From an uncultured Chitinophaga sp. (lineage in GTDB: Bacteria; Bacteroidota; Bacteroidia; Chitinophagales; LD1), in NCBI GenBank assembly GCA_964615305.1, contig CAZTNA010000011.1, forward strand, positions 13,023-77,022: DNA of 64,000 nt, written 5' to 3'. Shown here piece after piece: positions 1 to 13,737 of this stretch. The notes under the pieces are model-generated. The model was not told the DNA's origin. It did not search any database and saw nothing but the letters and a program-made list of their open reading frames with translations. Both the position numbers and the translations under genes were made by a program. The first letter of the stretch is position 1, and each line of letters starts with the position of its first letter.

Positions 1-160
1 TAATTGTTTTCACTTTTTCGTGTATTTGTTTGTAATAACGATGCTTGCCAATCGTAATGCCAGTACTTTAAGTCCCTCGATGTTTAGTTGCAAAAAGCCC
101 TACTACACAATGATTTACCCCCCAGAGAGATGAGGATTTAATTTTTTCAAACTAACCAAA

Positions 161-194
161 GTAAGGTTACAATTTTGAATTTGTAAGGTTACAA
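161..194. repeat. Direct 12-mer repeat GTAAGGTTACAA x2 (161-172 and 183-194, 22-bp register); partial third copy GTAAGGTTA at 434-442
   Basis: Read directly. The copies embed TTACAA/TTGTAA and GTTACA/TGTAAC dyads and lie in non-coding AT-rich context. Confidence 0.6.
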
Positions 195-807
195 GGATAT
201 GTAACTGCTTATTATGTAGGCAAAAGTTATATCGCAGGAACAAGTTATGAAGAAATGGAAGAACAAAACCACTCGAATGAGGGATCTGAATTAGAAACAA
301 TGAGCTTTAAAGTGTTCAAAATTTTTCTAGCCAGTACAATTATTTATAGAAGCTGGAAACTATTTACACACAAATTATCATCTGAGTTAAACTACAAATT
401 TCAATGAATTTATTTCAGCAAATTTGTGTCCAAGTAAGGTTAGGCTTAAAGAGATCTATAGGGGGGAGCTTATAAATAGTTATGGCTATTGAAATATTAC
501 TCAATACCTAAAAATGCAAAGAAAATACCTTCCGTGCATCAGGAGATATATTCTGGGCACTTGGGTATAGCCTTTTACTTAAATTTTACGGCACAAGGTG
601 GTATATTGGCAAGGAAACTTTGGGGCTTTGAATATATCCAAGTGACGCTTAAGAATCTTGTTTTAATTTGATTCCGGCCAAAACATCGTATGCGCTGATT
701 CTTTCTCTGGCCCAGGCGATAGTATTTTTTAATTCCTCTGAGATTTCACTTTCCGCTTGGGTGCTCTCCTCAAGGTAATCAAGGAATGAAGTTACAATGG
801 TGTTTTT

Positions 808-1029
808 ATGCCAAATTTGTGCGGCACTAACCAACCTGGAAAATTTATCTATGAGGGAAATGAATTTGATGCTCCTTCAACAATAGTGAAAGCCATAAAA
901 GGTTATGATGATGATGGTTGGAATTTCTTTAGGACTATCAACCCTGATACAGGAAAGGAGGTTCGGATTAAAGATTTGCGATGGGACGGTGTACGGAAAA
1001 AAAGAATAAGAAGCAACCTCAAAAAATGA
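808..1029 (+). CDS. Small stand-alone ORF resembling the C-terminal DUF4357-type domain of restriction/defence-associated proteins; possibly a gene remnant
   Basis: 73 aa. FDAPSTIVKAIKGYDDDGWNFFRT..GKEVRIKDL recalls the (S/A)PS..A....G...(N/D)GW..W motif. An in-frame stop lies 21 nt upstream of the ATG. It overlaps a convergent 61-aa ORF (649-834, TTG start). Confidence 0.3.
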   Translation: MPNLCGTNQPGKFIYEGNEFDAPSTIVKAIKGYDDDGWNFFRTINPDTGKEVRIKDLRWDGVRKKRIRSNLKK

Positions 1030-1057
1030 TTGTCAATTACATACCAAAATAAACCCA

Positions 1058-1405
1058 ATGGAAACTAAAACGGTCTGGCTTAATAATAGCAATAAATATA
1101 TTGCCATGACCGAAGATGAAATCTTTGAAATCAGGATGAATAAGTTCATCCAACGGTTAAGACCCGTAATTTATGAGGCAGTAAATGACTGTCTATCTAA
1201 AATTCAAATCGATAGCCGTATTCAAGAAGTAGAGGATAGTTTATGGAGTATCAAAGATGTGATGAAATATTTCGGCTGTGCTAAGACAACAGTTTTTAAA
1301 TGGAGAACTCTAGGCCTTATTAAGTCTCACAAGATTGGGAATAAAGTTTATTACAAAAAGGCTGATATTCTTAAGAGTTTGAAGAATCGTGAAAAAACAA
1401 AATAG
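1058..1405 (+). CDS. Helix-turn-helix DNA-binding protein, excisionase/MerR-like, of the kind found on Bacteroidota mobile elements
   Basis: 115 aa. The C-terminal half, WSIKDVMKYFGCAKTTVFKWRTLGLIKSHKIGNKVYYKKADILKSL, matches the excisionase-type HTH pattern (..ttv..W...G.i....ig....y.k.di...l). Confidence 0.7.
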   Translation: METKTVWLNNSNKYIAMTEDEIFEIRMNKFIQRLRPVIYEAVNDCLSKIQIDSRIQEVEDSLWSIKDVMKYFGCAKTTVFKWRTLGLIKSHKIGNKVYYKKADILKSLKNREKTK

Positions 1406-1425
1406 GCTGGTTAACTTTTGCCCTA

Positions 1426-4083
1426 TTAAACAGTTCCTATCCAATTTTGCCAATCCAACCATCCTTTCTCTTTATAAACCTCCGCGGGGTTTAATGGAAT
1501 AAATGCGGGACGCTTATTACTCATTTGCCATTCGTCCCATTCCTTTTTGGTTTCTAATTTCAACTTACGGACATAAAGCCGCGCTTGATCGAATGGTAAA
1601 AATCCAGGCAACACTTGTTGAGGGACATTTTCCCATAAGCCGATTTTATGTCTGAGGAAATCAAGGAAGGGAATATTTCTGTACCGACAGGTTTGTGCTA
1701 GGCTAAGCATTTGCAGATAAGAACTAATACCCTTTTCGCTCACTTGCCCATTTACACCACGCCGATGCTGAGCAAAAGCTTTCGCCGCAGCTTCTGCATT
1801 GTTATTATTCCATGGCACACCATCATGATAAAGAAATGTCCATAATTCATCCCAGTGTTTTGTTAGTCTTTTTGCGTACCTAATAGATAATCCACTTTTA
1901 TGAGTTTCATTAAGGAAGTTTCGCGAAAACATTTCAATGTCTTTAAGGTGCCTCCGTAAAAAATATTTTTTCAATCCGTGCCGGTCAACAGTTTCAATGA
2001 TCTTTCTTAAAATCTTACCAAAGGCAACTACCATTGCTTTATATTCTTCATCAAATGGATTTTTGAAAAGATCATCATTCAAATCACGTATTAGGTGGAC
2101 CAGGCATTTCTGTTGTTTAACCTTAAGGGTTTCATAACCAGGAAAAGAATCCGTAACAATAACCCCTTCATATCCTTTTAACCATTCTTCAAGAAAAGCT
2201 GTTTCACGTGTCAGCGTGAAATGATAAAAAACGGTGTGCGGTGTAGCAAAAATCCAAACATAACCCCGATCCTTGGAAAGTTTAATGGTTGTTTCATCAA
2301 TATGGATAACCGGACTTTGCCGTATAATTTCCCATAGATAATTTACCTCTGGCTCCCATTTATGCCACCACTTATGTTGGCGATCCACGAAATACTGTCT
2401 GAATGCCCAGATGCTAAATTGCTCTTCCAACAAACGGCTAATCATTTCATGACTGATATGATAGTTAACATATAGATTAGTTGTCCAGGCAAAAAGATTG
2501 TCACCAAACAGCATTCTGCGAACAACGCCATTATTAAAATGTCTCCAGCATTCAGCACATTTTACCTGTGTAGATTGATATTCTACTACCCACTGTTTTA
2601 TACCGGATGGAGTAAATTTTAAATCTGTTTGCCGCCATTTCTGTATTTGCTTCGTACAGTCATACAGTTTTGTGTGGCCACATTTGGGGCACTTTTTAAG
2701 TCGAGGCATTGTCACAACTTCATTTACTTTACTAGGTTGCCATCCATGTACACCCCTTCCCAAATGTCGCTTCTCATTTAACTTTTTAGGAGCAGAGGGT
2801 GACCGATTGATTCCTTGGTTCCTCCAATAGATTTTGGTTTGCTGATAATTGAAATAAGAGGCCTTAGTAATAACATTAAAGTCTTCTCCAAAATCTTTGT
2901 TACTCTGAAACTTGAACGGGCTTTGCCTTTTCATATCGGCAACACTCTGCACGTTCTCTCTGTTCGGATTGGCGGCAAGCTGTAAAAGCCAACGGCTAAC
3001 CTTTACCAAAGCAAAACAGTCATCCAGATTATATTGCTTCAGTTTTTCTTTTAGAGCAGTGTCTCCGGTGACTTCCCAGTTTTTTCGCCACTTCATACTT
3101 AATACACCATCTGCATCTTCATTCTGCCAGTGAAAGCCAAGAAATGCAGCGATCTCCTTAAGACCATTTCCATAAGTGGGCGGGTAGACATGGGTGCGGA
3201 AATAGCTAAGTGTATTAACTGTTCTTTTCTCGATTTCAGGAAACTCTTGTTTAAAGGTTCCCTGCCATTTCTTGACTGCTTGCTTCAGTGCCTGGATTTC
3301 ATAACTACCATAATGGTAAATGGGGGCGTCTGGATGACTGATAAGCAGCGCAAACAATTTTTGAAAGATTTCCTCTTCCCGATCTTTACTATCGGCCCAA
3401 AACGAATAACACTGATTCTTCTGGCCTTCTTCTTTGATAACTACGCCAATTAGATAAATTAAATTCTCTTCTGGTAGTCCTTCAAAATCAAGGTAGATTT
3501 CCTTTGAACTTTCCTCCAAATCGGGAGGATAAATCACATAGGTCTTTTGTTCCCTTATTGCAAGTGCCTTTAAATCCCATAGATAGGAGCCTCCAGGATT
3601 TTGAGGTCTTCTGCCGCGTCTTCTTGGACGAAAAGTGTGTGAAATTTGAGTGATAGAAAATAAACCTTTACTATGGTACTTGGTTAACACCGGAACAGAC
3701 ATACTTGGCAACAAACTGAGGCAATCCCTATCCTTTAGTTTTTGATAGCAGCTATCTCTAAACTGACATTCAGAACAATGAGTGTTACGATAAAATACCG
3801 GGGCCTCATCCTTGCTAAGTAGAAACTTTAATTCCGCTAACAACGACTGCGCCTTTTTGGCGTATTGTGTGACTCGAATTGAAGTCGTTTGATGGGGTAA
3901 TTGCGCTTCATAACCGGATATGCGATAGCCATATTTGATTTGAGCTTTTTCAATTAATTGCCCGGTTTCCTCTAATTTTCCATAACACCAAGCCGCGACA
4001 GCAAGTTTATCATTCGGAGTAATTTTAATGACCGGGATAACTATCCGCGTTTCTTTTTCGGATAACTTACCGAATTCGGGTAA
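1426..4083 (-). CDS. RecB-like/TM0106-type nuclease module (Cas4-type Cys cluster plus YprB-type RNase H-like domain) fused in frame to an IS66-family DDE transposase; C-terminal integrase-repeat-like motif
   Basis: The ORF-track start at 3843 is TTG, and the same frame stays open up to 4083. Residues 23-32 are CSECQFRDSC (C-x2-C-x5-C). Residues ~115-290 read IYLDFEGLP..YHYGSYE..DDCFAL. Residues 385-432 hold a CPKCG..CAEC zinc finger. Residues ~510-690 read HIDETT..VTDSFPGY..CLVHLIRD..NNNNAE (IS66 DDE pattern). Residues 749-805 read EWDEW..KRPAFIPLNP..VYKEKGWLDWQNWIG. Confidence 0.75.
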   Translation of the reverse strand, partial: LPEFGKLSEKETRIVIPVIKITPNDKLAVAAWCYGKLEETGQLIEKAQIKYGYRISGYEAQLPHQTTSIRVTQYAKKAQSLLAELKFLLSKDEAPVFYRNTHCSECQFRDSCYQKLKDRDCLSLLPSMSVPVLTKYHSKGLFSITQISHTFRPRRRGRRPQNPGGSYLWDLKALAIREQKTYVIYPPDLEESSKEIYLDFEGLPEENLIYLIGVVIKEEGQKNQCYSFWADSKDREEEIFQKLFALLISHPDAPIYHYGSYEIQALKQAVKKWQGTFKQEFPEIEKRTVNTLSYFRTHVYPPTYGNGLKEIAAFLGFHWQNEDADGVLSMKWRKNWEVTGDTALKEKLKQYNLDDCFALVKVSRWLLQLAANPNRENVQSVADMKRQSPFKFQSNKDFGEDFNVITKASYFNYQQTKIYWRNQGINRSPSAPKKLNEKRHLGRGVHGWQPSKVNEVVTMPRLKKCPKCGHTKLYDCTKQIQKWRQTDLKFTPSGIKQWVVEYQSTQVKCAECWRHFNNGVVRRMLFGDNLFAWTTNLYVNYHISHEMISRLLEEQFSIWAFRQYFVDRQHKWWHKWEPEVNYLWEIIRQSPVIHIDETTIKLSKDRGYVWIFATPHTVFYHFTLTRETAFLEEWLKGYEGVIVTDSFPGYETLKVKQQKCLVHLIRDLNDDLFKNPFDEEYKAMVVAFGKILRKIIETVDRHGLKKYFLRRHLKDIEMFSRNFLNETHKSGLSIRYAKRLTKHWDELWTFLYHDGVPWNNNNAEAAAKAFAQHRRGVNGQVSEKGISSYLQMLSLAQTCRYRNIPFLDFLRHKIGLWENVPQQVLPGFLPFDQARLYVRKLKLETKKEWDEWQMSNKRPAFIPLNPAEVYKEKGWLDWQNWIGTV

Positions 4084-4181
4084 TCATTTAGTGGCTGATA
4101 CTGCAATGTTTCCTTTGCAAGAAGCCATGCCTTATACGGACAGTGAAGCATCGCGCGCAATAGTTTCAGATCAGTTTCCAT
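4041..4181 (-). pseudogene. N-terminal piece of the same nuclease domain lying in a different frame (frameshifted 5' end of the 1426-4083 gene)
   Basis: ATG at 4181-4179. METDLKLLRAMLHCPYKAWLLAKE... carries the N-terminal Cys expected for Cas4/TM0106-type Fe-S nucleases. This frame stops at 4041, while the main frame is open from 4083 downward, so one indel in about 4041-4086 would join them. Confidence 0.5.
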
Positions 4182-4549
4182 TGCAGTATATTTTCGTTAG
4201 TTCAAAAATAAAGGCAGATCGGACGATTACTCAATTTATGCCGTAAATAAACTGAGGAAGCGGTCCTATCAACAAAAGCTCGTTGTCAATAACGTTCACG
4301 AGACGGGTTCAACTCAAATTTTAGTGCGTATTGCTTGTTATTCATTTAGATAACTTCTCTAAATAGTGACGTATAATCTCAAAAATTACTTTTAGTAAAT
4401 AATGTATAACGGGTTACCGGTATTTTAGATTACCGGCGTATGTATTACAGTTCCTGTCATAGAAAAATCAGAAAAGAATAATTAAATAGCCGCGGTTGTG
4501 ATTATTCCACACTGACTTTAATCCATACTTACACCATAATTAATAAGCT

Positions 4550-7500
4550 ATGAACACAAAGCCCCTTTATTCATTAGTTTGTCTCTTGCTGTTTTCTTTG
4601 TATTCTTTTGCCCAAAAGATAGACACTCTAAGTCTGCAATCACCGTCAGATTTTTATTATACACCAGGTGAAACCTTCCTGCTCTATTTAACCGATTTGG
4701 ACAGTTTGGAAATAAGTTTTGATCCTGAGGATTACCACCTGTTTAAATATGACAGCATGAATAAGGTAATATCATTTTCACCTTCTCTAACAGATAAAGA
4801 GGAGCATTTGTTTTATGTAACTAAACAAAAAGACACTATTAATATAATTGGTTTTTATCCCATAAACAAACTTGAAACAAGAAATGGATTTGGTCGCTAC
4901 AATACAAGCAAAATTTTAGATGAATCATCCTATGCTACTATTACTATCGATTCCTTAGCTGCAGGTTGGATTTTAAAAATGAACGGTAGAAAAATTACTT
5001 TCGAAAATAAAAAGGATAACCTATTTTATAATTATGTGTACAAGCCAGGTGATGTAGATTCCAGATTTAAAAGAGTTGAAATTGGGGCAGATACGCTTAT
5101 CATTAAAGACAGAATTTATTTCCCATTCGCAAAAATGCTGGTTAATGTAAAAGTACTAATCATAGATTATTCGGGAAACCTTCCAGTCATTGATATTACC
5201 CCATTAACCAATACGCGAAAAATAAATCTCCAATATAATTTAAAAGGAGAGGATGGAAAAAGTGCGGATACACTATTTGTATTCTTTGACAAGCTAATAA
5301 ATAATAGCAATGCGCAAATTTTGTTCGCTGCGTGTGGCGGTAATGGACAAAATCCACCGCCCGGCAAAAATGGGATTGATTATCCTCCTGTAAAACTAGC
5401 AACAAAAAATCTTATTGCAAGAAGGAGAGGATATGATCAGTACTGCCCTTCTTCGCGCCAAATGGTTGCAGTTGTAAATGAAACAGATCCTAGAGGAAAA
5501 GGACTTATACGTATTGACTGGCATCATACAATTAAAGCTAGAGGTGGGTCTGGCTACCACGGAACCGATTGGGAGTCCGTATGTATATATGATAGTTCTC
5601 AAAATAATTATGCCTCAGTATTTACTGCTAAAAATATTAAAAGAGCAATGCCTACGCCAGGTGGTAAACCAGGAGAACCTGGTAAGGGCGGGATTATCAT
5701 TTCGAATCACTTGATAAACGCCGTCGCTTCGGTGATTGGTGGAAAATCGGGAGTCCCTGATACGTTACGGTACAGCGGAAAAATATCAGGCCCGAAGAAT
5801 CCGTGGATGCTTAGTATCAAGAGTGGGGTATCATACGGTAGAGTAAGCCCTACAACCTACACTTTTAGTCCACTAAATTATCCAGCGGATTCTGTCCTTA
5901 GACCACAACTACCCATTTCTGCAAATGGCAAGGCGGGTGAAATCGTAACTTCCGCTGATTTTAAAAAATGGATGAACATTGATTATATCAAATATGTTGT
6001 GGATAATGCCAATGATCTTTTTAGATTCGGACAAGTTGAAAGTGCTCGAAATACGTTTTCTTACTACAAAGAGCATTTTTTTGACGACTCAATTGTGAGA
6101 ATGCAATTTTCAAAAAATATTATGTTTTGGGAGTTAGAAGGTGTGGTTAATACAGCCCTTATTAAAATGGCGGCGAATCTTGACTATTATGGTAATCCGT
6201 ATGGTTTTGTGCCCGGATTAGGGATCGTAGCTAATTCCGCCGCATACAAGGGGTCAATAAAAGAACTCGCAAACGCTTATGCAGCTTGTATTTACTTGGA
6301 AAAACAGATTTTTACCGATCAGAATGCTTACAATACCGCTGTTCAAAGACTTAATACCTATCTTGAGGAAAACTTAAATTTTGAAGAGGAGTTTCAGGAT
6401 ATTGAGTTAAATCATATGCCCTTAGTTGAAAGAAAAATAGATACAACCCTTCTTTTTTTGACTTCAGTATCGGCGCGTATTAATGAATTGGATGCTGAGT
6501 TCAAGAAAAAAGCCAAAAGAAAGATTGAACGGGATGAAAAAAGGAAAAAAGATAAGCAATTTATACGAAATCTTTGCACCATAGCCAAGGTTGTACCCTA
6601 CGGGCAGCCAGCCCTGGGTGTTGGCGTTAGTGTTTTTGAAGCTGTGGCTGCGGGTGAAGAAGGATCTACGTTTTTGGAGGGTTTGTCATCCGTTATTTCT
6701 GATTATAAAATGATACAATCGACATCGAAACAGTTTAGTGCTTTTAAAGAGGCTGTTAATTATTCTTTGACCTCCTCACCACCTGAACTGCCTATTTATA
6801 AAAAACTATACAATAACCGGGATACTCTTTTAAAAACTGCAGACCCATATTTTTCCAGCGTTGAAAAAGTACTGAAAGAATTGGATTTTAAAAAAGTTTC
6901 TAAGGAAAGCGTTGCTGCTGAAGTTGAAAGAATGAAGGCAAGTCACCCGGAATACAAGGATCTTATTGATAGCGTTCAAAAGCTTACGGAGTTGAACAAA
7001 GATTTACTCGAAGGATTACTAAGTCTGCAACTTAGATTACGAAATATAACAAAGACGATTGCATATAACGGCCAACTTATGGATGATGTAAAAGTTAAAT
7101 TATCCTCGCGTGTATTGCCAGGGGAAGAGAGAAAAAAAATACTCTCGATTCTTAAAAATGAAATCGTCGATAAACTAAATTACTATCAATACTTTTATGC
7201 CAAGGCGTACGAATACTTTACTTTAAAACAATACCCAGGGTATGAAAGGACGTTTTTTAATTTTAAAGGAAATAAGTTTGAGACCTACGATAACTATCAG
7301 GAGTTGGTAGAGAGAGTATCTAACATTTATTTGTTGGATGCCAGTGAGGCGGCTCGAGAAAGTTTTACTACTTTGAACGCAAATTCAACCTCCCCTTCTG
7401 TCACAACTTCAAAAATATTTTCTCTGAAAAAAGATGATGTGGAAAAGCTAAATCGAAAGGAGCAAGTATCCATAAATTTATTTAGAGACTTTGAATACAA

Positions 7501-8224
7501 TTTTTTGAAAAAAGAATTGTCAGATAATGAAGATATACTTATTGAGAACATAGAAGTTACACCATTTTATAATCCGGCTTCAGTTAATCAGTTCGTGTCG
7601 GGTTCCTATGCTTGGTCGAAAATCGAAACGGCGCATCTGGGAATGTCCAGACGGTACAAAGATGGAATGCAATATGATTTCATTAATGCTTCGGGAAGCA
7701 ATGCCCTCATGAACAAGTGGACTGTTGATATAAATTTTCAACCTTATGTTCTTACGCGGAGAAAATTGCATGGGACGTATGTAGAACTTATAAATGTTTT
7801 AACTGAAAGGAGCATCCCTGAAAATAGTATAAGGACAGTGGTTTCTTTTGATAGCGATTTAAAGATTAACAAAGAAGATCATCAGGAAGGCGGGAAGCAA
7901 GTATTGCTAGATTCTGTCAATGTAAGAGTTGATGTAGTTTTGATACCCAGAGATAAATTCTACGGCGTATATCTGTATGATAGTATTAACGAAGGAAGAA
8001 GGCCTCCTTTGCGGCTAATTGCTGGAAATAAGATATATGATGGAGAAAAGGTGCTGTATAAATCATTTGCTAAAAATGAAATTGTACGAGTTACAGTGCC
8101 CCAATATTGGAACGATAAGAAATTTGCGTATTGGGTAGTTGATGATAAGATAGTTGTTGCAAAAAATAGTTTTGATATAAAATTGGAAAAAAAAATATAC
8201 CGTGTTATTCCAATCTATAATTAA
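4550..8224 (+). CDS. 1224-aa secreted protein of unknown function (signal peptide, Gly-rich punctuated N-terminal region, long helical/coiled-coil middle, beta-rich C-terminus)
   Basis: The N-terminus MNTKPLYSLVCLLLFSLYSFAQ is a signal peptide. There is no T9SS CTD, lipobox or catalytic motif that I recognise. Lys/Glu-rich helical stretches occur, e.g. KKKAKRKIERDEKRKKDKQ. Confidence 0.7.
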   Translation: MNTKPLYSLVCLLLFSLYSFAQKIDTLSLQSPSDFYYTPGETFLLYLTDLDSLEISFDPEDYHLFKYDSMNKVISFSPSLTDKEEHLFYVTKQKDTINIIGFYPINKLETRNGFGRYNTSKILDESSYATITIDSLAAGWILKMNGRKITFENKKDNLFYNYVYKPGDVDSRFKRVEIGADTLIIKDRIYFPFAKMLVNVKVLIIDYSGNLPVIDITPLTNTRKINLQYNLKGEDGKSADTLFVFFDKLINNSNAQILFAACGGNGQNPPPGKNGIDYPPVKLATKNLIARRRGYDQYCPSSRQMVAVVNETDPRGKGLIRIDWHHTIKARGGSGYHGTDWESVCIYDSSQNNYASVFTAKNIKRAMPTPGGKPGEPGKGGIIISNHLINAVASVIGGKSGVPDTLRYSGKISGPKNPWMLSIKSGVSYGRVSPTTYTFSPLNYPADSVLRPQLPISANGKAGEIVTSADFKKWMNIDYIKYVVDNANDLFRFGQVESARNTFSYYKEHFFDDSIVRMQFSKNIMFWELEGVVNTALIKMAANLDYYGNPYGFVPGLGIVANSAAYKGSIKELANAYAACIYLEKQIFTDQNAYNTAVQRLNTYLEENLNFEEEFQDIELNHMPLVERKIDTTLLFLTSVSARINELDAEFKKKAKRKIERDEKRKKDKQFIRNLCTIAKVVPYGQPALGVGVSVFEAVAAGEEGSTFLEGLSSVISDYKMIQSTSKQFSAFKEAVNYSLTSSPPELPIYKKLYNNRDTLLKTADPYFSSVEKVLKELDFKKVSKESVAAEVERMKASHPEYKDLIDSVQKLTELNKDLLEGLLSLQLRLRNITKTIAYNGQLMDDVKVKLSSRVLPGEERKKILSILKNEIVDKLNYYQYFYAKAYEYFTLKQYPGYERTFFNFKGNKFETYDNYQELVERVSNIYLLDASEAARESFTTLNANSTSPSVTTSKIFSLKKDDVEKLNRKEQVSINLFRDFEYNFLKKELSDNEDILIENIEVTPFYNPASVNQFVSGSYAWSKIETAHLGMSRRYKDGMQYDFINASGSNALMNKWTVDINFQPYVLTRRKLHGTYVELINVLTERSIPENSIRTVVSFDSDLKINKEDHQEGGKQVLLDSVNVRVDVVLIPRDKFYGVYLYDSINEGRRPPLRLIAGNKIYDGEKVLYKSFAKNEIVRVTVPQYWNDKKFAYWVVDDKIVVAKNSFDIKLEKKIYRVIPIYN

Positions 8225-8801: not shown

Positions 8802-8830
8802 TTGCAGGTTTGGGTAGTTGCGTATATTTG
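8802..8830 (+). promoter_or_regulatory. Bacteroidota sigma-A type promoter candidate (-33 TTG at 8802-8804, -7 TATATTTG at 8823-8830)
   Basis: Matches the TTG / TAnnTTTG consensus with an 18-nt spacer, 22 nt upstream of the ATG at 8852. Confidence 0.45.
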
Positions 8831-8851
8831 AATGTTAACAATAATTTTAGA

Positions 8852-9694
8852 ATGACAGCACGCGACATAGAAAAATACAAACAGGAATTGGTTCCATTGA
8901 CAAATAACGACTTTGAGAAAGAGTTGCTATCTGCAAGTTTAGAAAATCTACTTGACAAAGAAAATAAGCTGCGATTTAACAACTTTGCTTGTGGTATAAG
9001 GGAACTATCAAGACATATTCTACACAATCTTTCGCCAGATAAAGAAGTAATGAATTGCGTTTGGTATAAAAATGAGAGTAAAAAGCCAGGACAACTAACA
9101 AGGGCAGAGAGAGTTAAGTATGCTATTCAAAAAGGACTTCCTGACAAATTCGTTGAAACATTTTACGATACAGACGAACACATCTGTGACATAAGGGAAA
9201 CTTTGGAGACGCTAAATAAATACACACACGTAAACCCAGACACCTTTAATATTCCTGAGGCTGATGTAAACAAACTTACAAGAGAAGTATTAGAGACATT
9301 TAAACGATTTACCTTTGGTATTGGTAATTTTCACAAACTTTTCAAAACTGAATTAGAAGAGCATATTGACAAAGTGGTGATGGAACATACCATCGAAGAG
9401 ACCTTTGACGACATAGATATTTTAGCGACACATCACAACATTGAAGAACACGAAACTACATCATATACTATAACCGAAATAGATAGTAGAAATATTTTTA
9501 TTGAGGCAAATGGTAGTTTAAGCGTTCGGCTTCAATATGGGTCTGACGGTGACTTAGCCAAAGGTGATGGGATGGAAATGAACACTTCTTTCCCATTTGA
9601 TTGTCGGCTGCAGATAATAATCAACGAAGACTTTTCAAAAAGCAAATACAAGACCTTAACTTTTAACATCAACACCGATGAATGGTATGAATAG
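8852..9694 (+). CDS. 281-aa hypothetical protein with an all-helical N-terminal domain carrying an R-x4-H (HEPN-like) motif and an acidic beta-rich C-terminal domain
   Basis: The start was moved to ATG 8852, downstream of the promoter box. NFACGIRELSRHILHNL gives R50 at 8999-9001 and H55 at 9014-9016. A second conserved-looking block is LNKYTHVNPDTF. Confidence 0.55.
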   Translation: MTARDIEKYKQELVPLTNNDFEKELLSASLENLLDKENKLRFNNFACGIRELSRHILHNLSPDKEVMNCVWYKNESKKPGQLTRAERVKYAIQKGLPDKFVETFYDTDEHICDIRETLETLNKYTHVNPDTFNIPEADVNKLTREVLETFKRFTFGIGNFHKLFKTELEEHIDKVVMEHTIEETFDDIDILATHHNIEEHETTSYTITEIDSRNIFIEANGSLSVRLQYGSDGDLAKGDGMEMNTSFPFDCRLQIIINEDFSKSKYKTLTFNINTDEWYE

Positions 9695-9858
9695 AAAACT
9701 ACTAACTAATATCGTATTGACAATATTGAGGTTGCCGGCTTTAGGCTCAATATTTGCAATTCTATTGGGCATTTGTGCAAATGATGTGCTGGTGTTTTTT
9801 CTAATGCCCTATCGACAACACTTGAGCCGTTAAAAGGCATTAAAAAGATACCACAAGA

Positions 9859-10062
9859 ATGATGGACTACGAAATAAGTGAAATAAGAAAGGTTACAAAA
9901 ATGCTTTCACCGACAGCAGACTTTGAGAGTGAATTTACATTTTACTATGATGAAACGAATAACATTAAAAAATTCTATGTCAGAGAAACTGACTTTAACT
10001 ACACATACACGTCAAATTTTGTTTTAGGCGGCTTAGTTCACTTGGGGCAAGCGTACGCTTAA
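9859..10062 (+). pseudogene. N-terminal fragment of a DUF3800-family gene, truncated after about 60 codons
   Basis: FTFYYDETNNIKKFYV...FVLGGLV matches the DUF3800 N-terminal pattern (YxDETgn...fvlGG). The frame ends abruptly where sequence homologous to the XRE gene 5' end begins. Confidence 0.5.
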
Positions 10063-10137
10063 TTTGCCTAAATCTGTGACTTCCTGTGGAATACGTGCTG
10101 CTGCCGTCATTTTTCCAAAAAAGGCAACACCACGACA
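10063..10137. repeat. Left copy of a repeated segment; it is the 5' end plus upstream leader of an XRE-type gene (minus-strand remnant MTAAARIPQEV..)
   Basis: The core 10081-10137 aligns with 22494-22548 (57 vs 55 nt, about 6 mismatches plus two 1-nt homopolymer indels). Weaker similarity (12/18) continues over 10063-10080 vs 22476-22493. Confidence 0.8.
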
Positions 10138-10288
10138 AAATCAAGCAAATAATAAAAGCTACTCCTTACTATAGTAGTTAATCTTTGTAGATAGTATTGG
10201 GCTTTTTATTTAACAGTATTTCATCTTTTCGGCGAGTCCTTTCACAAATTAATATGACTTTCTTTATTCTCTTACCCCAATCCATAAT

Positions 10289-10903
10289 ATGAAGCAGCTC
10301 ACTTTTATCTTAGGAATATTTCTTCTTGTATCTAGCACGATTACTGGTCAAATCATCTTTAAGAATTCAACTTACAAGGTAAATTTCAGTAATACGCTTC
10401 ACCAGCCCAGATATGTAAGCTATTTCCTCTATAAAGGAGGCGGAGATTGCGACCGTACTCCTTTTAGATTTAAGAACGACAAACCAGAATTAGAGTGTGC
10501 CACGGATCAGGATTATGCAGGAACAAAATACGATAAAGGCCACCTTGCAAACGCAGAGGATTTTGCATTCGATTGTACTAAGGACGAGGAAACATTCCGT
10601 TATTACAACTGCTTGCCGCAAACTACAAAGCTTAATCGAGGTATTTGGAAGTCGAAAGAGACCGAAATACGAAAGTGGTCGCAAAAGGAAAAACTCTATA
10701 TCATTTGTGGGGGATATTTCCAAGGTGTCACCATGAATAATGTGTCAGTACCGAGCTATTGCTGGAAAATTGTACAATCCGTTAAGACAAATGAGGTGCT
10801 GTTCTGTGGCTGGTTTATTAATACTTCGACCGCTACCCTCGAAGAAATATCAGTTTCAGAATTAGAAAAACGCCTTCATTCAAGAATCATTCTTCTTAAA
10901 TAA
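10289..10903 (+). CDS. Exported DNA/RNA non-specific endonuclease (Endonuclease_NS, Serratia NucA/EndoG family)
   Basis: Signal peptide MKQLTFILGIFLLVSSTITGQ. YDKGHLANAEDF is the DRGH-type motif (His85 codon at 10541-10543). NCLPQTTKLNRGIWKSKETEIRKW is the N..PQ...N.G.W metal-site block. Confidence 0.85.
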   Translation: MKQLTFILGIFLLVSSTITGQIIFKNSTYKVNFSNTLHQPRYVSYFLYKGGGDCDRTPFRFKNDKPELECATDQDYAGTKYDKGHLANAEDFAFDCTKDEETFRYYNCLPQTTKLNRGIWKSKETEIRKWSQKEKLYIICGGYFQGVTMNNVSVPSYCWKIVQSVKTNEVLFCGWFINTSTATLEEISVSELEKRLHSRIILLK

Positions 10904-10918
10904 ATTACGGAAACTACT

Positions 10919-12838
10919 ATGGCAGATTCTGTTTCTTCAGACATCGTTAAATATCCATTTGAGAATATAGCATTATCGTTCTCTGGTGGAGGCTTTCGCG
11001 CTGCTTCCTTTGCCTTAGGAACACTTTCATATTTCGACCACCTCAAAGTCAAAGAGGCAGAAACAGAATCGTCCCTATTACGTCGAGTAACGTATATGTC
11101 ATCTGCATCAGGCGGTACAATAGCAACAGCGCTGTACGCTCTTATGAGTGTTGAAGAGACATTTACGTTTGGTGCTTTTTATAAAAAGCTTTTTACGGCC
11201 CTTGATGGCGATGCACTGCTGGCCCGTGTGCTCATAATTCTTGAGGATGAAGACAAACTTTGGGAAAGCCGCAAAGGAAAGCAGAGGAATTTCATCAATG
11301 CATTTGCCTTGGCTTATGATGAAATCTTGTTTGATGGACAAACACTTTCTGCGTTACAGAAACCCAATACCTCTTCGAATTTATACGAAGTTTGCTTTAA
11401 TACTACTGAGTTTTATCGCGGACTTCTCTTTCGCCAGGCAGTAAAGTTGCGCCCTTTTGAAGAAAAGGAGGGACAATTCTTATTTGGTAATTTTCTTTTC
11501 AATCTTGATCACAATGCTGCCGGTCACTTAAAATTATCGGATGTTCTTGCTGCTTCCTCTTGCTTTCCTGGTGGGTTTGAGCCAATTGCCTTCCCTTCGG
11601 ATTTTATTCATTCATCCAGCCCATCTGCCAAGGAATTTATAGGGGCACTACATTTTGAGCTACAGACTGGAGATATGGACGAGCTAAAGTTTCTCTTTGG
11701 CGATTTACCTGTAGATACATTAAAGGCAAACCGGGATATTCTCTTGGGTAAGGCCGAAGGCGAACTGAAATATGTAAAGTTGCCGAATATTGGTTTTATG
11801 GATGGTGGCATTTCTGACAACATTGGGATTGAAAGCATGATGAAAGCGAATGATCGCAGGTCTCGGAAGGAATCCGCTATCCCCCCTTTTGATTTCATGA
11901 TGACTAACGATGTGGGAAGCCAGTTCATGGATTCTTATCAGCTTCCAGAGAACAAAAGGAGTCGCTTCGGATTTCTCAATGTCAATTTTCTCATCGGTCT
12001 TTTTACCATGTTTCTATTAGTTGGTATACCGTTGCTTATATGGGGCTTCTTCCCCGAATCGATGGTACTAACCTATGTATGTGTTATGGTAGGATCTACA
12101 CTATCTTTTTCCAGTTTACTGTTTTTCTCGTTGCTGTTTTTCGCTCATTATAAAATTGTCGGGGCTACGGAGAAAAATGGCGGATTGAATTTAGATAAAA
12201 ACTTCTCGCCTGTCATCATTAAGAAACTCTCCAAGCACTTACGAAAAATAAACCTTGATACCCTCATTCAGATGGTAAAGGCCCGTAGTGCCTCACTCAT
12301 TATTCTGAACACTGATGTTTTTCTCAAAAGGGTTCGCCAGCTTTTATACAATGACTTTTTCGATTCCTCATTATGGAACTACAAAGTGAAAGGCAACCGG
12401 GCATATGACCTAGCATTGAGTAATGACGCTCACCGAAAACCAAAAGAAAACGTACAGGATGAACCAACGCCTGCTATGAGAAAGGTTGCAGAAATTGCAT
12501 TCACTATGGGCACTACCTTGTGGTTTGACCAGGGAGAAAGCAAAAACTCGCATAAGCAGGCCTGTATTATTGCTTCCGGCCAGTTTACCACCTGTTACAA
12601 CCTGCTGGAGTACGTGCAACGTGTTCTGCGCAATAAGAAACTATTTGATGGGCTGGAGAGCAAGTATCAAGAACGGCTTATTGACCTGGAAACCAAATTA
12701 AAGAAAGACTATCGAGCGTTTCAGAAAGACCCATTCTTTCTTTATAACCAGTTAGGTCATGACTTTAGTATTGAAAATTTTATGCCGGTAGACGAAACTG
12801 AAGTACCTTTTCCCGAAACGTTTAAAAACCTTATCTAG
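10919..12838 (+). CDS. cPLA2/patatin-like phospholipase with a central hydrophobic hairpin and an uncharacterised C-terminal domain
   Basis: SGGGFRAAS (10985-10999) is the oxyanion motif. SSASGGT is the nucleophile elbow (Ser64 codon at 11108-11110). FMDGGISDNIG has Asp295 at 11801-11803. Hydrophobic segments FLNVNFLIGLFTMFLLVGIPLLIWGFF and MVLTYVCVMVGSTLSFSSLLFFSLLFF span about 11966-12150. Confidence 0.85.
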   Translation: MADSVSSDIVKYPFENIALSFSGGGFRAASFALGTLSYFDHLKVKEAETESSLLRRVTYMSSASGGTIATALYALMSVEETFTFGAFYKKLFTALDGDALLARVLIILEDEDKLWESRKGKQRNFINAFALAYDEILFDGQTLSALQKPNTSSNLYEVCFNTTEFYRGLLFRQAVKLRPFEEKEGQFLFGNFLFNLDHNAAGHLKLSDVLAASSCFPGGFEPIAFPSDFIHSSSPSAKEFIGALHFELQTGDMDELKFLFGDLPVDTLKANRDILLGKAEGELKYVKLPNIGFMDGGISDNIGIESMMKANDRRSRKESAIPPFDFMMTNDVGSQFMDSYQLPENKRSRFGFLNVNFLIGLFTMFLLVGIPLLIWGFFPESMVLTYVCVMVGSTLSFSSLLFFSLLFFAHYKIVGATEKNGGLNLDKNFSPVIIKKLSKHLRKINLDTLIQMVKARSASLIILNTDVFLKRVRQLLYNDFFDSSLWNYKVKGNRAYDLALSNDAHRKPKENVQDEPTPAMRKVAEIAFTMGTTLWFDQGESKNSHKQACIIASGQFTTCYNLLEYVQRVLRNKKLFDGLESKYQERLIDLETKLKKDYRAFQKDPFFLYNQLGHDFSIENFMPVDETEVPFPETFKNLI

Positions 12839-12840
12839 TA

Positions 12841-13737
12841 ATGGCATTTTTACAAAGAACGGCTCCTTTCCGGCTCCTCGTTTTAGTTGCAATTCTTGGA
12901 ACATTGCTGAACCAGTCCTGTAGGACCTTGCCGGTAAGTGCTCCGAAGGAATTGGCTGAAGCAACCTATTCATTACACCTCAACCTTGATGAAAGCTTCT
13001 CGCATACTATTGCACTTATGGAAGAACGCAATTACTTGCGCCTTACAGACACTTTCATCTCACGGGCAAACTATTCGGATACCATATCAAGAAAACTGAG
13101 CCTCCAGTTCGACAAACGACTTAGATATATCAATGTTCTCAACGCGTATTTCAATGCTCTTGCGGCCCTAGCTGAAAAGAACAATACGAGTGAGGTACAT
13201 GATGCGGCGTGTAAGCTAAATAATGCTCTTACCGGGTTGAAGGAAAAAGTGCCAAGTTCCGAACAAGGATTTTATAAAGCAACTTCGCTAGGCTTTAGTG
13301 TTATCACGGATTTAATCATTCGGTCTATAAGCCAAAATATTCAGCGCAAAACCATCAAGCTGGCTATGGATACGGCCGGACCAAGCCTGGATACTATCTG
13401 CAAATTACTGATTGCGGATCTTAAAATAGCAGACATGGCTGCAACCAATAACGGCAATTCAGTAATCCAAAGACTTATCATCACAAGAAACTCAGATTCT
13501 TCGCTCACGAATCGGGTAGCTTGGGACAAGAATATTCATGACCGGATGAAAGAAATGAACAATCTTCATAACTCATATCAATGCGCAATAGCTCTGTTAC
13601 AGTCCTTACCCTCTGCACATGCACAAGCGAGAAAAACGTTAGATAAGAAAATCGAATTCCGTGATGCTATATCGTATGTTTCGTCACAAGGGTCCGAACT
13701 CGGTGCATTATATAGCAAAATAAAATCGTCTCAGTAA
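12841..13737 (+). CDS. 298-aa exported (possibly lipidated) all-helical protein, unknown function
   Basis: The N-terminus MAFLQRTAPFRLLVLVAILGTLLNQSC is a signal peptide ending in Cys, though not a canonical lipobox. The start lies 2 nt after the lipase stop. Confidence 0.6.
   Translation: MAFLQRTAPFRLLVLVAILGTLLNQSCRTLPVSAPKELAEATYSLHLNLDESFSHTIALMEERNYLRLTDTFISRANYSDTISRKLSLQFDKRLRYINVLNAYFNALAALAEKNNTSEVHDAACKLNNALTGLKEKVPSSEQGFYKATSLGFSVITDLIIRSISQNIQRKTIKLAMDTAGPSLDTICKLLIADLKIADMAATNNGNSVIQRLIITRNSDSSLTNRVAWDKNIHDRMKEMNNLHNSYQCAIALLQSLPSAHAQARKTLDKKIEFRDAISYVSSQGSELGALYSKIKSSQ

Follow-up and report, generated by a model that had tools for sequence, protein, structure and literature searches.

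Analysis of a 64,000-nucleotide (nt) stretch of an uncultured Chitinophaga sp. (contig CAZTNA010000011.1, positions 13,023 to 77,022 of the forward strand; hereafter the window) has revealed, on the minus strand at 1426-4181, a gene for an IS66-family transposase whose domain architecture is very widespread yet undescribed, a TM0106/COG2251 module preceding the DDE transposase core. As judged from their sequences, members of this family permanently carry this N-terminal module, comprising a Cas4-like putative Fe-S domain and a predicted DEDD-type exonuclease, and together they form a large lineage of DDE transposases related to IS66 that has apparently gone unstudied. Based on domain content, residue conservation, distribution and the ends found in a sister clade, from which we also infer a mechanism, we lean with slightly better than even confidence to the view that the window gene belongs to a lineage of IS66-related transposases equipped with an exonuclease of their own, and that this copy has probably been inactivated only just recently.

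Domain scans were performed on the conceptual join of the two reading frames over which the gene is spread as assembled, a protein of 918 amino acids (aa). RNase_H_2 (PF13482) matched residues 229-399 at E 4.5e-29 over profile positions 1-164 of 165, and the transposase was recognized both by DDE_Tnp_IS66 (PF03050; residues 558-818, E 1.4e-27, 97 bits against a cutoff of 23) and by the NCBIfam model transpos_IS66 (NF033517; 185 bits against a cutoff of 180, profile positions 18-383 of 387). TIGR03491, the 'TM0106 family RecB-like putative nuclease', scored 183 bits (cutoff 97) over profile positions 156-462 of 462 only; unlike the window protein, in which positions 1-155 are unmatched, fusion relatives with a long N-terminal region cover positions 1-462. 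The Cas4 profiles TIGR00372 and PF01930 reached only E ~0.06 in the Pfam and NCBIfam scans, over the cysteine cluster (HCSECQFRDSC) alone. An initial annotation, made from the sequence without database searches, had proposed just such an architecture, a TM0106-type module fused to an IS66 DDE transposase, with a C-x2-C-x5-C cluster at 3748-3777, an RNase H-like domain at about 2973-3501, an IS66 zinc finger at about 2547-2691 and a DDE core with the motifs HIDETT, VTDSF and NNNNAE, and its placement of all four proved right to within a few bases (Table 1). It had also allowed that residues 1-380 might be the ordinary N-terminal region of an IS66 subgroup, and here the profile searches show otherwise.

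A search of PDB by sequence found no relative. The AlphaFold2 model of the closest relative of the window protein, P0001 (mean pLDDT 82.4), had as its best Foldseek match the ISCth4 transposase of the IS256 family (PDB 6xg8, 6xgx; E 2.6e-7, ~390 columns), which speaks for a true transposase fold in the C-terminal half of the protein. The similarity is one of fold, with 12% sequence identity, and ISCth4 belongs to another insertion sequence (IS) family and lacks an N-terminal exonuclease module. The whole-model search was dominated by the DDE half and gives no structural verdict on the N-terminal remnant.

To assess which of these domains may still be functional, we compared residues in alignments of 24 and 39 family members, with relatives at 33-85% identity. 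In both alignments, the exonuclease acids (D and E of DFEG, D of NxDDC), the transposase triad (D of HIDET, D of TDSF, E of NNNNAE) and the four zinc-finger cysteines were invariant; mean column identity was 55% in the 24-sequence alignment, and the open reading frames (ORFs) are long and intact. By these motifs the predicted DEDD-type 3'-5' exonuclease looks intact. In contrast, the Cas4-like domain is, judged by its motifs, catalytically dead in every fusion aligned: the stand-alone TM0106-type protein L003 carries FPD...PIDIK...QLQGY and so keeps D...D-x-K and QxxxY, whereas at the position of (D/E)xK the long-N fusions show PILVS, PIIIS, PIFFW, PILHH or the like, and QxxxY is missing from them, and the window clade (the window protein, P0001 and P0007) is ~80 residues shorter, with the first motif region gone. 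What has been conserved across the aligned fusions is the cysteine of CPYKAW (C14) together with the C-x2-C-x5-C cluster, and we therefore regard the N-terminal domain of the window protein as a nuclease-dead, shortened, putative Fe-S remnant. The initial annotation had suspected as much in calling the nuclease possibly degenerate. It had also suggested that end-processing might be coupled to transposition as in Cas4-Cas1; since (D/E)xK is absent from all aligned fusions, the Cas4-like part would be unable to act as Cas4 does there, and the exonuclease is the sole remaining candidate for such a role. An active Cas4-like nuclease is thus ruled out by the motif alignment.

These findings place the N-terminal module close to the TM0106/COG2251 proteins (TIGR03491; RNase_H_2 cluster F.13, PMC3985635), which have the same two domains in the same order as the fusion but no transposase domain, and from which the window clade differs further in lacking TIGR03491 positions 1-155. 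The survey of the RNase H-like superfamily that defined this cluster lists COG2251/PF13482 among predicted 3'-5' exonucleases co-occurring with DUF83, and makes no mention of an IS66 fusion (PMC3985635). With respect to CRISPR Cas4, the window protein differs in having no nuclease motifs and hardly any match to the Cas4 profiles, and no cas genes lie nearby.

At the other end of the protein, members of the window clade carry one to four Trp-rich repeats of the form W..W...GKRP.FIP..P...Y...GW..W.DW.G, of which the window protein has one. Neither this unit nor the four units of P0007 directly matched a Pfam or NCBIfam model. The repeat region of P0007, however, retrieved 197 repeat proteins with E-values down to 1e-116, most with PF14882, which we confirmed to be 'INT_rpt, integrase repeat unit'; NUMOD1 was matched in one of three retrieved repeat proteins tested. 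This retrieval points to an INT_rpt-like module in the tail, presumably DNA-binding. The Bacteroidota subclade of the window copy is distinguished, on sequence grounds, by two changes: 1) the Cas4-like domain has been cut to a four-cysteine remnant; 2) one to four INT_rpt-like units have been added at the C-terminus.

The fusion is neither rare nor confined to the window genome, and belongs to a large family. A protein search returned 1931 matches, of which the top 120 (700-1105 aa) all have both PF03050 and PF13482, under the database names 'IS66 family transposase', 'TM0106 family RecB-like putative nuclease' and 'predicted RecB family nuclease'. In a scan of one genome per species, at least 544 loci matched, with 34-68% identity and coverage of both protein halves, and the best 80 of these were taken into the comparison. 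The taxa among the matches listed include Bacteroidota, Cyanobacteria (for example, Acaryochloris marina MBIC11017), Planctomycetota, Proteobacteria, Verrucomicrobiota, Nitrospirota, Acidobacteriota and archaeal metagenome-assembled genomes (MAGs). An assembly chimera, which had been entertained for the window gene, is ruled out because the same architecture recurs in at least 544 independent loci. The distribution is nonetheless patchy, with the fusion present in none of 40 congeners and in only 1-2 of 401 genomes of a phylum sample.

The window copy itself is an ordinary member of this family and is probably dead. The initial annotation had described one reading frame, but the gene is frameshifted and so cannot be read in a single one: the stop-to-stop open frame on the minus strand spans 1426-4083 (885 codons), while the ATG at 4181 opens a different frame, reading METDLKLLRAMLHCPYKAWLL...NDYPNSVSYPKKKRG, which ends at the TAG at 4043-4041; the in-frame stop of the downstream frame is the TGA at 4084-4086 and that of the start frame is this TAG (4041-4043). 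DNA alignment with the gene of intact P0001 revealed that one base is absent between 4081 and 4080 (GATTA[T]CCCGAATTC), with AAT GAT TAT CCC GAA TTC (NDYPEF) in P0001 vs. AATGATTA-CCCGAATTC in the window; the site as assembled reads GATTACCCG, and the form expected of an intact gene is GATTATCCCG. The deletion falls at codon 35 and puts the downstream part in frame -1, leaving the first putative Fe-S cysteine encoded upstream of the frameshift. Given this one-base deletion, we surmise that the window copy has probably been inactivated very recently, at best giving an N-terminally truncated product.

Two other explanations of this frameshift were considered. It might be a sequencing or assembly error, with the gene in the organism intact and encoding the 918-aa protein, and this would count against an inactivated copy; we view such an error as quite possible, if on the unlikely side. 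Beyond the one-base loss the gene has no other disruption, the remaining 885 codons being open with every catalytic motif intact; both P0001 (917 aa; 85% aa and 81% nt identity to the window gene) and P0002 (919 aa), the close relatives, are intact; and the window genome is a draft assembly in 56 contigs. However, the missing base lies outside any homopolymer (TTA[T]CCC), the usual place of such errors, and genes of mobile elements commonly show recent inactivation by a single base. Programmed -1 ribosomal slippage, by contrast, seems very improbable. A G AAA AAG motif at 4053-4059 (minus strand) sits where the two frames overlap for 40 nt, between the upstream stop of the downstream frame and the stop of the start frame; slippage there would join the frames while altering only 8 residues of a variable linker, and the motif resembles the A AAA AAG slippery heptamer of IS3-family elements and dnaX. 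Yet this heptamer begins with G, not A, a one-base deletion is the simplest reading, and slippage is made unlikely above all because every relative examined reads through in a single frame.

Table 1. Features of the fusion gene and its upstream region (window coordinates; all on the minus strand)
Feature	Position	Strand	Remarks
Promoter-like element TATTTTTG	4203..4210	-	22-29 nt upstream of the ATG; fits TAnnTTTG; kept in the 81%-identical relative L085
5' part of the gene, original frame (M1..Y34)	4081..4181	-	Encodes the first putative Fe-S cysteine (CPYKAW; codon 4140-4142); alignable with the N-terminal ends of P0001 and P0002
Frameshift site	4080..4081	-	One base fewer than in the intact relative (GATTA[T]CCC), from DNA alignment
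Remainder of the gene, 885-codon open frame	1426..4080	-	Stop codon 1426-1428
Vestigial Cas4/TM0106-type PD-(D/E)XK domain	3748..4065	-	No catalytic motifs; ~80 aa shorter than in other fusions; C-x2-C-x5-C at 3748-3777
RNase_H_2 (COG2251/YprB-type), DEDD-like predicted 3'-5' exonuclease	2986..3498	-	IYLDFEG, YHYGSYE and YNLDDC intact
Zinc finger	2548..2691	-	CPKC...CAEC; upstream of the DDE core
IS66-type DDE catalytic core	1729..2511	-	HIDETT, VTDSF, NNNNAE
C-terminal Trp-rich repeat unit, INT_rpt (PF14882)-related	1429..1611	-	One copy here, up to four in relatives

Indications that the family may be mobile come from a sister clade, whose members are 37-40% identical and have the full-length N-terminal domain. 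Sister-clade loci labelled Pedobacter glucosidilyticus, Flavobacterium and Chitinophaga, from MAGs as well as isolates, have 94-98% identical DNA in common, which runs past the gene and takes in an AbiEi/AbiEii-like pair. This common stretch has conserved, inverted ends (left GTTACCTGCAAGCCT, right, as reverse complement, GTTACCTGCTGGCCT; 13/15 identical), and the same ends occur in L033, L035, L060 and L073, where they adjoin unrelated flanks. The units measure 4-4.8 kb and have 15-bp terminal inverted repeats (TIRs), as in L045 (7244-12032), L044, L046, L047, L034, L036 and L042, the L045 element being that of the type strain P. glucosidilyticus DSM 23534; their cargo is a pair of ~200 aa and 340 aa that resembles AbiEi/AbiEii, judged from sequence features only. 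Target duplications in this clade could not be identified without empty sites. Conserved inverted ends beside unrelated flanks argue well for classical TIR-bounded transposons, some with cargo, as the vehicle of at least some family members.

Among known elements, the nearest are those of the single-ORF, tnpC-only ISBst12 subgroup of IS66, with which the window gene shares a DDE core scoring above the cut-offs, the D/D/E triad, the preceding CxxC...CxxC and the absence of tnpA and tnpB, which are accessory genes of canonical IS66 but not of the ISBst12 group. It differs from this subgroup in ~480 additional N-terminal residues and an INT_rpt-like repeat at the C-terminus, and, as a clade, in the absence of TIRs and 8-bp duplications and in occurring once per genome. 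The sister-clade ends begin with GTTACC..., and not with GTAA... as the ends of IS66 do.

Several observations on the window's own clade weigh against reading the gene as the transposase of a mobile element: 1) no convincing TIRs or 8-bp target duplications were found at the window copy (1-5200), and the 26 window-clade loci have no conserved ends or flanks beyond promoter-like elements in a search with 9-mer seeds over 500 nt upstream and 300 nt downstream, complemented by inspection by eye; 2) there are no tnpA/tnpB-like ORFs beside the window gene or in the clade neighbourhoods, and on this point, as on the missing TIRs, our searches agree with the initial annotation; 3) the gene is present as a single copy in the window genome and in 19 of 20 carrier genomes, and only 2 of 72,556 plasmids carry the fusion; 4) in four close pairs, similarity halts at the 3' end of the ORF or within ~50 nt of it, a pattern that an ordinary IS would not produce; 5) no publication on the fusion was found in a literature corpus of 8.4 million texts. 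For the window and L085 (81%), similarity sets in ~50 (possibly 100) nt upstream of the ATG and ceases ~10 nt short of the stop, and for L026 and L053 (90%) it sets in at the ATG and ceases ~19 nt short of the stop; for L012 and L040 (92%) and for L017 and L018 (91%), the 3' limit is the end of the ORF to within ~50 nt. The sister-clade TIR consensus was not found near the window gene, and its one match in the window, 39 kb away, is fewer than expected by chance. Neither of two further comparisons defined a unit: the 40 congeners yielded no empty site, both flanking genes being unique to the window genome, and the contexts of P0007 were identical in all 21 contigs.

Upstream of the gene, the putative promoter element in Table 1 fits TAnnTTTG, the -7 element of promoters in Bacteroidota (Bacteroides). 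Two other clade members (L089, ~3211-3227; L005, ~1235-1251) have the palindrome GTTACAAyTTTTGTAAC ~20-35 nt before the ATG, where it could serve as an operator or belong to the promoter; it does not occur in the window.

One way to account for these observations is that the window clade moves, or is moved, as a bare gene without terminal repeats. Such movement would explain both the similarity ending at the ORF boundaries and the single copy per genome, but we consider it improbable. If it were true, the DDE core, 3'-5' exonuclease and INT_rpt tail would constitute a self-contained machine for DNA insertion, with recognition sites inside or at the edges of the coding sequence, a kind of movement not known from any IS family.

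Another way to account for them, and the main rival of the reading we prefer, is that the gene has been domesticated, as the initial annotation had suggested, and the genomic surroundings bear on this. In the window, an HTH_17 gene (1058-1405) converges on the fusion gene, with 20 nt between its end and the stop codon of the latter, as noted in the initial annotation, and on the other side lies a gene for a secreted-looking protein of 1224 aa (4550-8224) with a signal-peptide-like start and no Pfam match; both are absent from 40/40 congeners. Farther on, four successive plus-strand genes with defence-like content (8810-13737) encode a 294-aa protein with pP_pnuc_1 and pP_pnuc_2 (a predicted pPIWI-associating nuclease), an Endonuclease_NS protein (204 aa), a patatin-like phospholipase (639 aa) and a 298-aa protein without significant family match; no Argonaute or PIWI gene was seen adjoining this row, and the window offers neither a CRISPR nor a Tn7 gene context. 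With flanking genes absent from congeners and defence-like neighbours, the window gene sits alone in a species-specific island with defence-like genes. Elsewhere in the clade the neighbours vary by locus and include tyrosine integrases (5 of 26 loci), HTH_17, type IV secretion system (T4SS) coupling proteins, YWFCY, type I restriction-modification (RM), OLD-like/AAA_15 (OLD/Gabija-like), SIR2 and conjugation genes, and this company of integrase, conjugation, RM, OLD/Gabija-like and SIR2 genes indicates variable mobile and defence regions. HTH_17 was rejected as a partner gene, its position and orientation being variable; the one in L085 is unrelated, and the only homologous one, in L016, is ~4 kb off.

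Two of these contexts are recorded here in their own right. The gene of P0007, which is 60% identical to the window protein (L090, 6001-9255), starts 260 nt beyond the point where the repeats of a type II-C CRISPR array end (5234-5742; 47-nt repeats, at least 7 copies) that lies downstream of cas9-cas1-cas2, and is followed by a Schlafen/AlbA_2-type gene, a context identical in 21/21 contigs. A secreted protein with long GxT/GPTG collagen-like repeats is encoded on the window's own contig ~13 kb to the left of the window (L086, 224-1564), and a close homologue of it lies on the P0001 contig (L085, 8514-8813), 2.5 kb from the fusion gene. Given this homologue beside P0001, the two organisms, or their islands, may be related.

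Under domestication, the gene would be a recruited enzyme and island cargo rather than the transposase of an element of its own, i.e. an IS66-derived DDE recombinase plus exonuclease that processes DNA for defence, counter-defence or island maintenance. The lack of ends in the window clade, the single copy per genome and near absence from plasmids, and the long intact ORFs with their column identity would fit this, as would the company of tyrosine integrases, HTH_17, T4SS coupling proteins, type I RM, OLD-like and SIR2 genes, the relative next to a type II-C CRISPR array, and the pPIWI-associated nuclease domains, Endonuclease_NS and patatin near the window gene. We nevertheless consider domestication rather unlikely and not established: there is no conserved partner gene or fixed position, hence no recognizable system; the sister clade has proper TIRs, and its TIR-bounded units have moved between genera; insertion sequences likewise accumulate in such islands; and the extreme patchiness of the family suits a selfish element at least equally well.

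Returning to the reading we prefer, that of a transposase lineage with its own exonuclease, we postulate the following division of labour. The zinc finger and the INT_rpt tail would bind DNA, the DDE core would cut and join DNA ends as other IS66 and IS256-like transposases do, the tethered exonuclease might trim the 3' strand or a flap at the donor or the joint, and the Fe-S remnant could be a structural or DNA-end-binding piece. By analogy only, Tn7 TnsA-TnsB, Cas4-Cas1 fusions and casposon-associated nucleases likewise combine an integrase or transposase with a nuclease-fold module for the other strand or for end trimming. In those systems, however, the PD-(D/E)XK module is catalytically active, whereas that of the fusion appears dead, leaving the 3'-5' exonuclease as the sole plausible extra activity.

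IS66 is among the least understood of the large IS families, with no structure found and a mechanism barely studied. The current names, 'IS66 family transposase' and 'TM0106 family RecB-like putative nuclease', each cover half the protein, and the 'nuclease' of the latter refers to a domain without its catalytic residues. The presence of the fusion across hundreds of species points to an end-processing step, which in canonical IS66 may be provided in trans or be absent. The fusion would offer a single polypeptide in which to dissect this step, and the TIR-bounded sister elements a concrete start for transposition assays.

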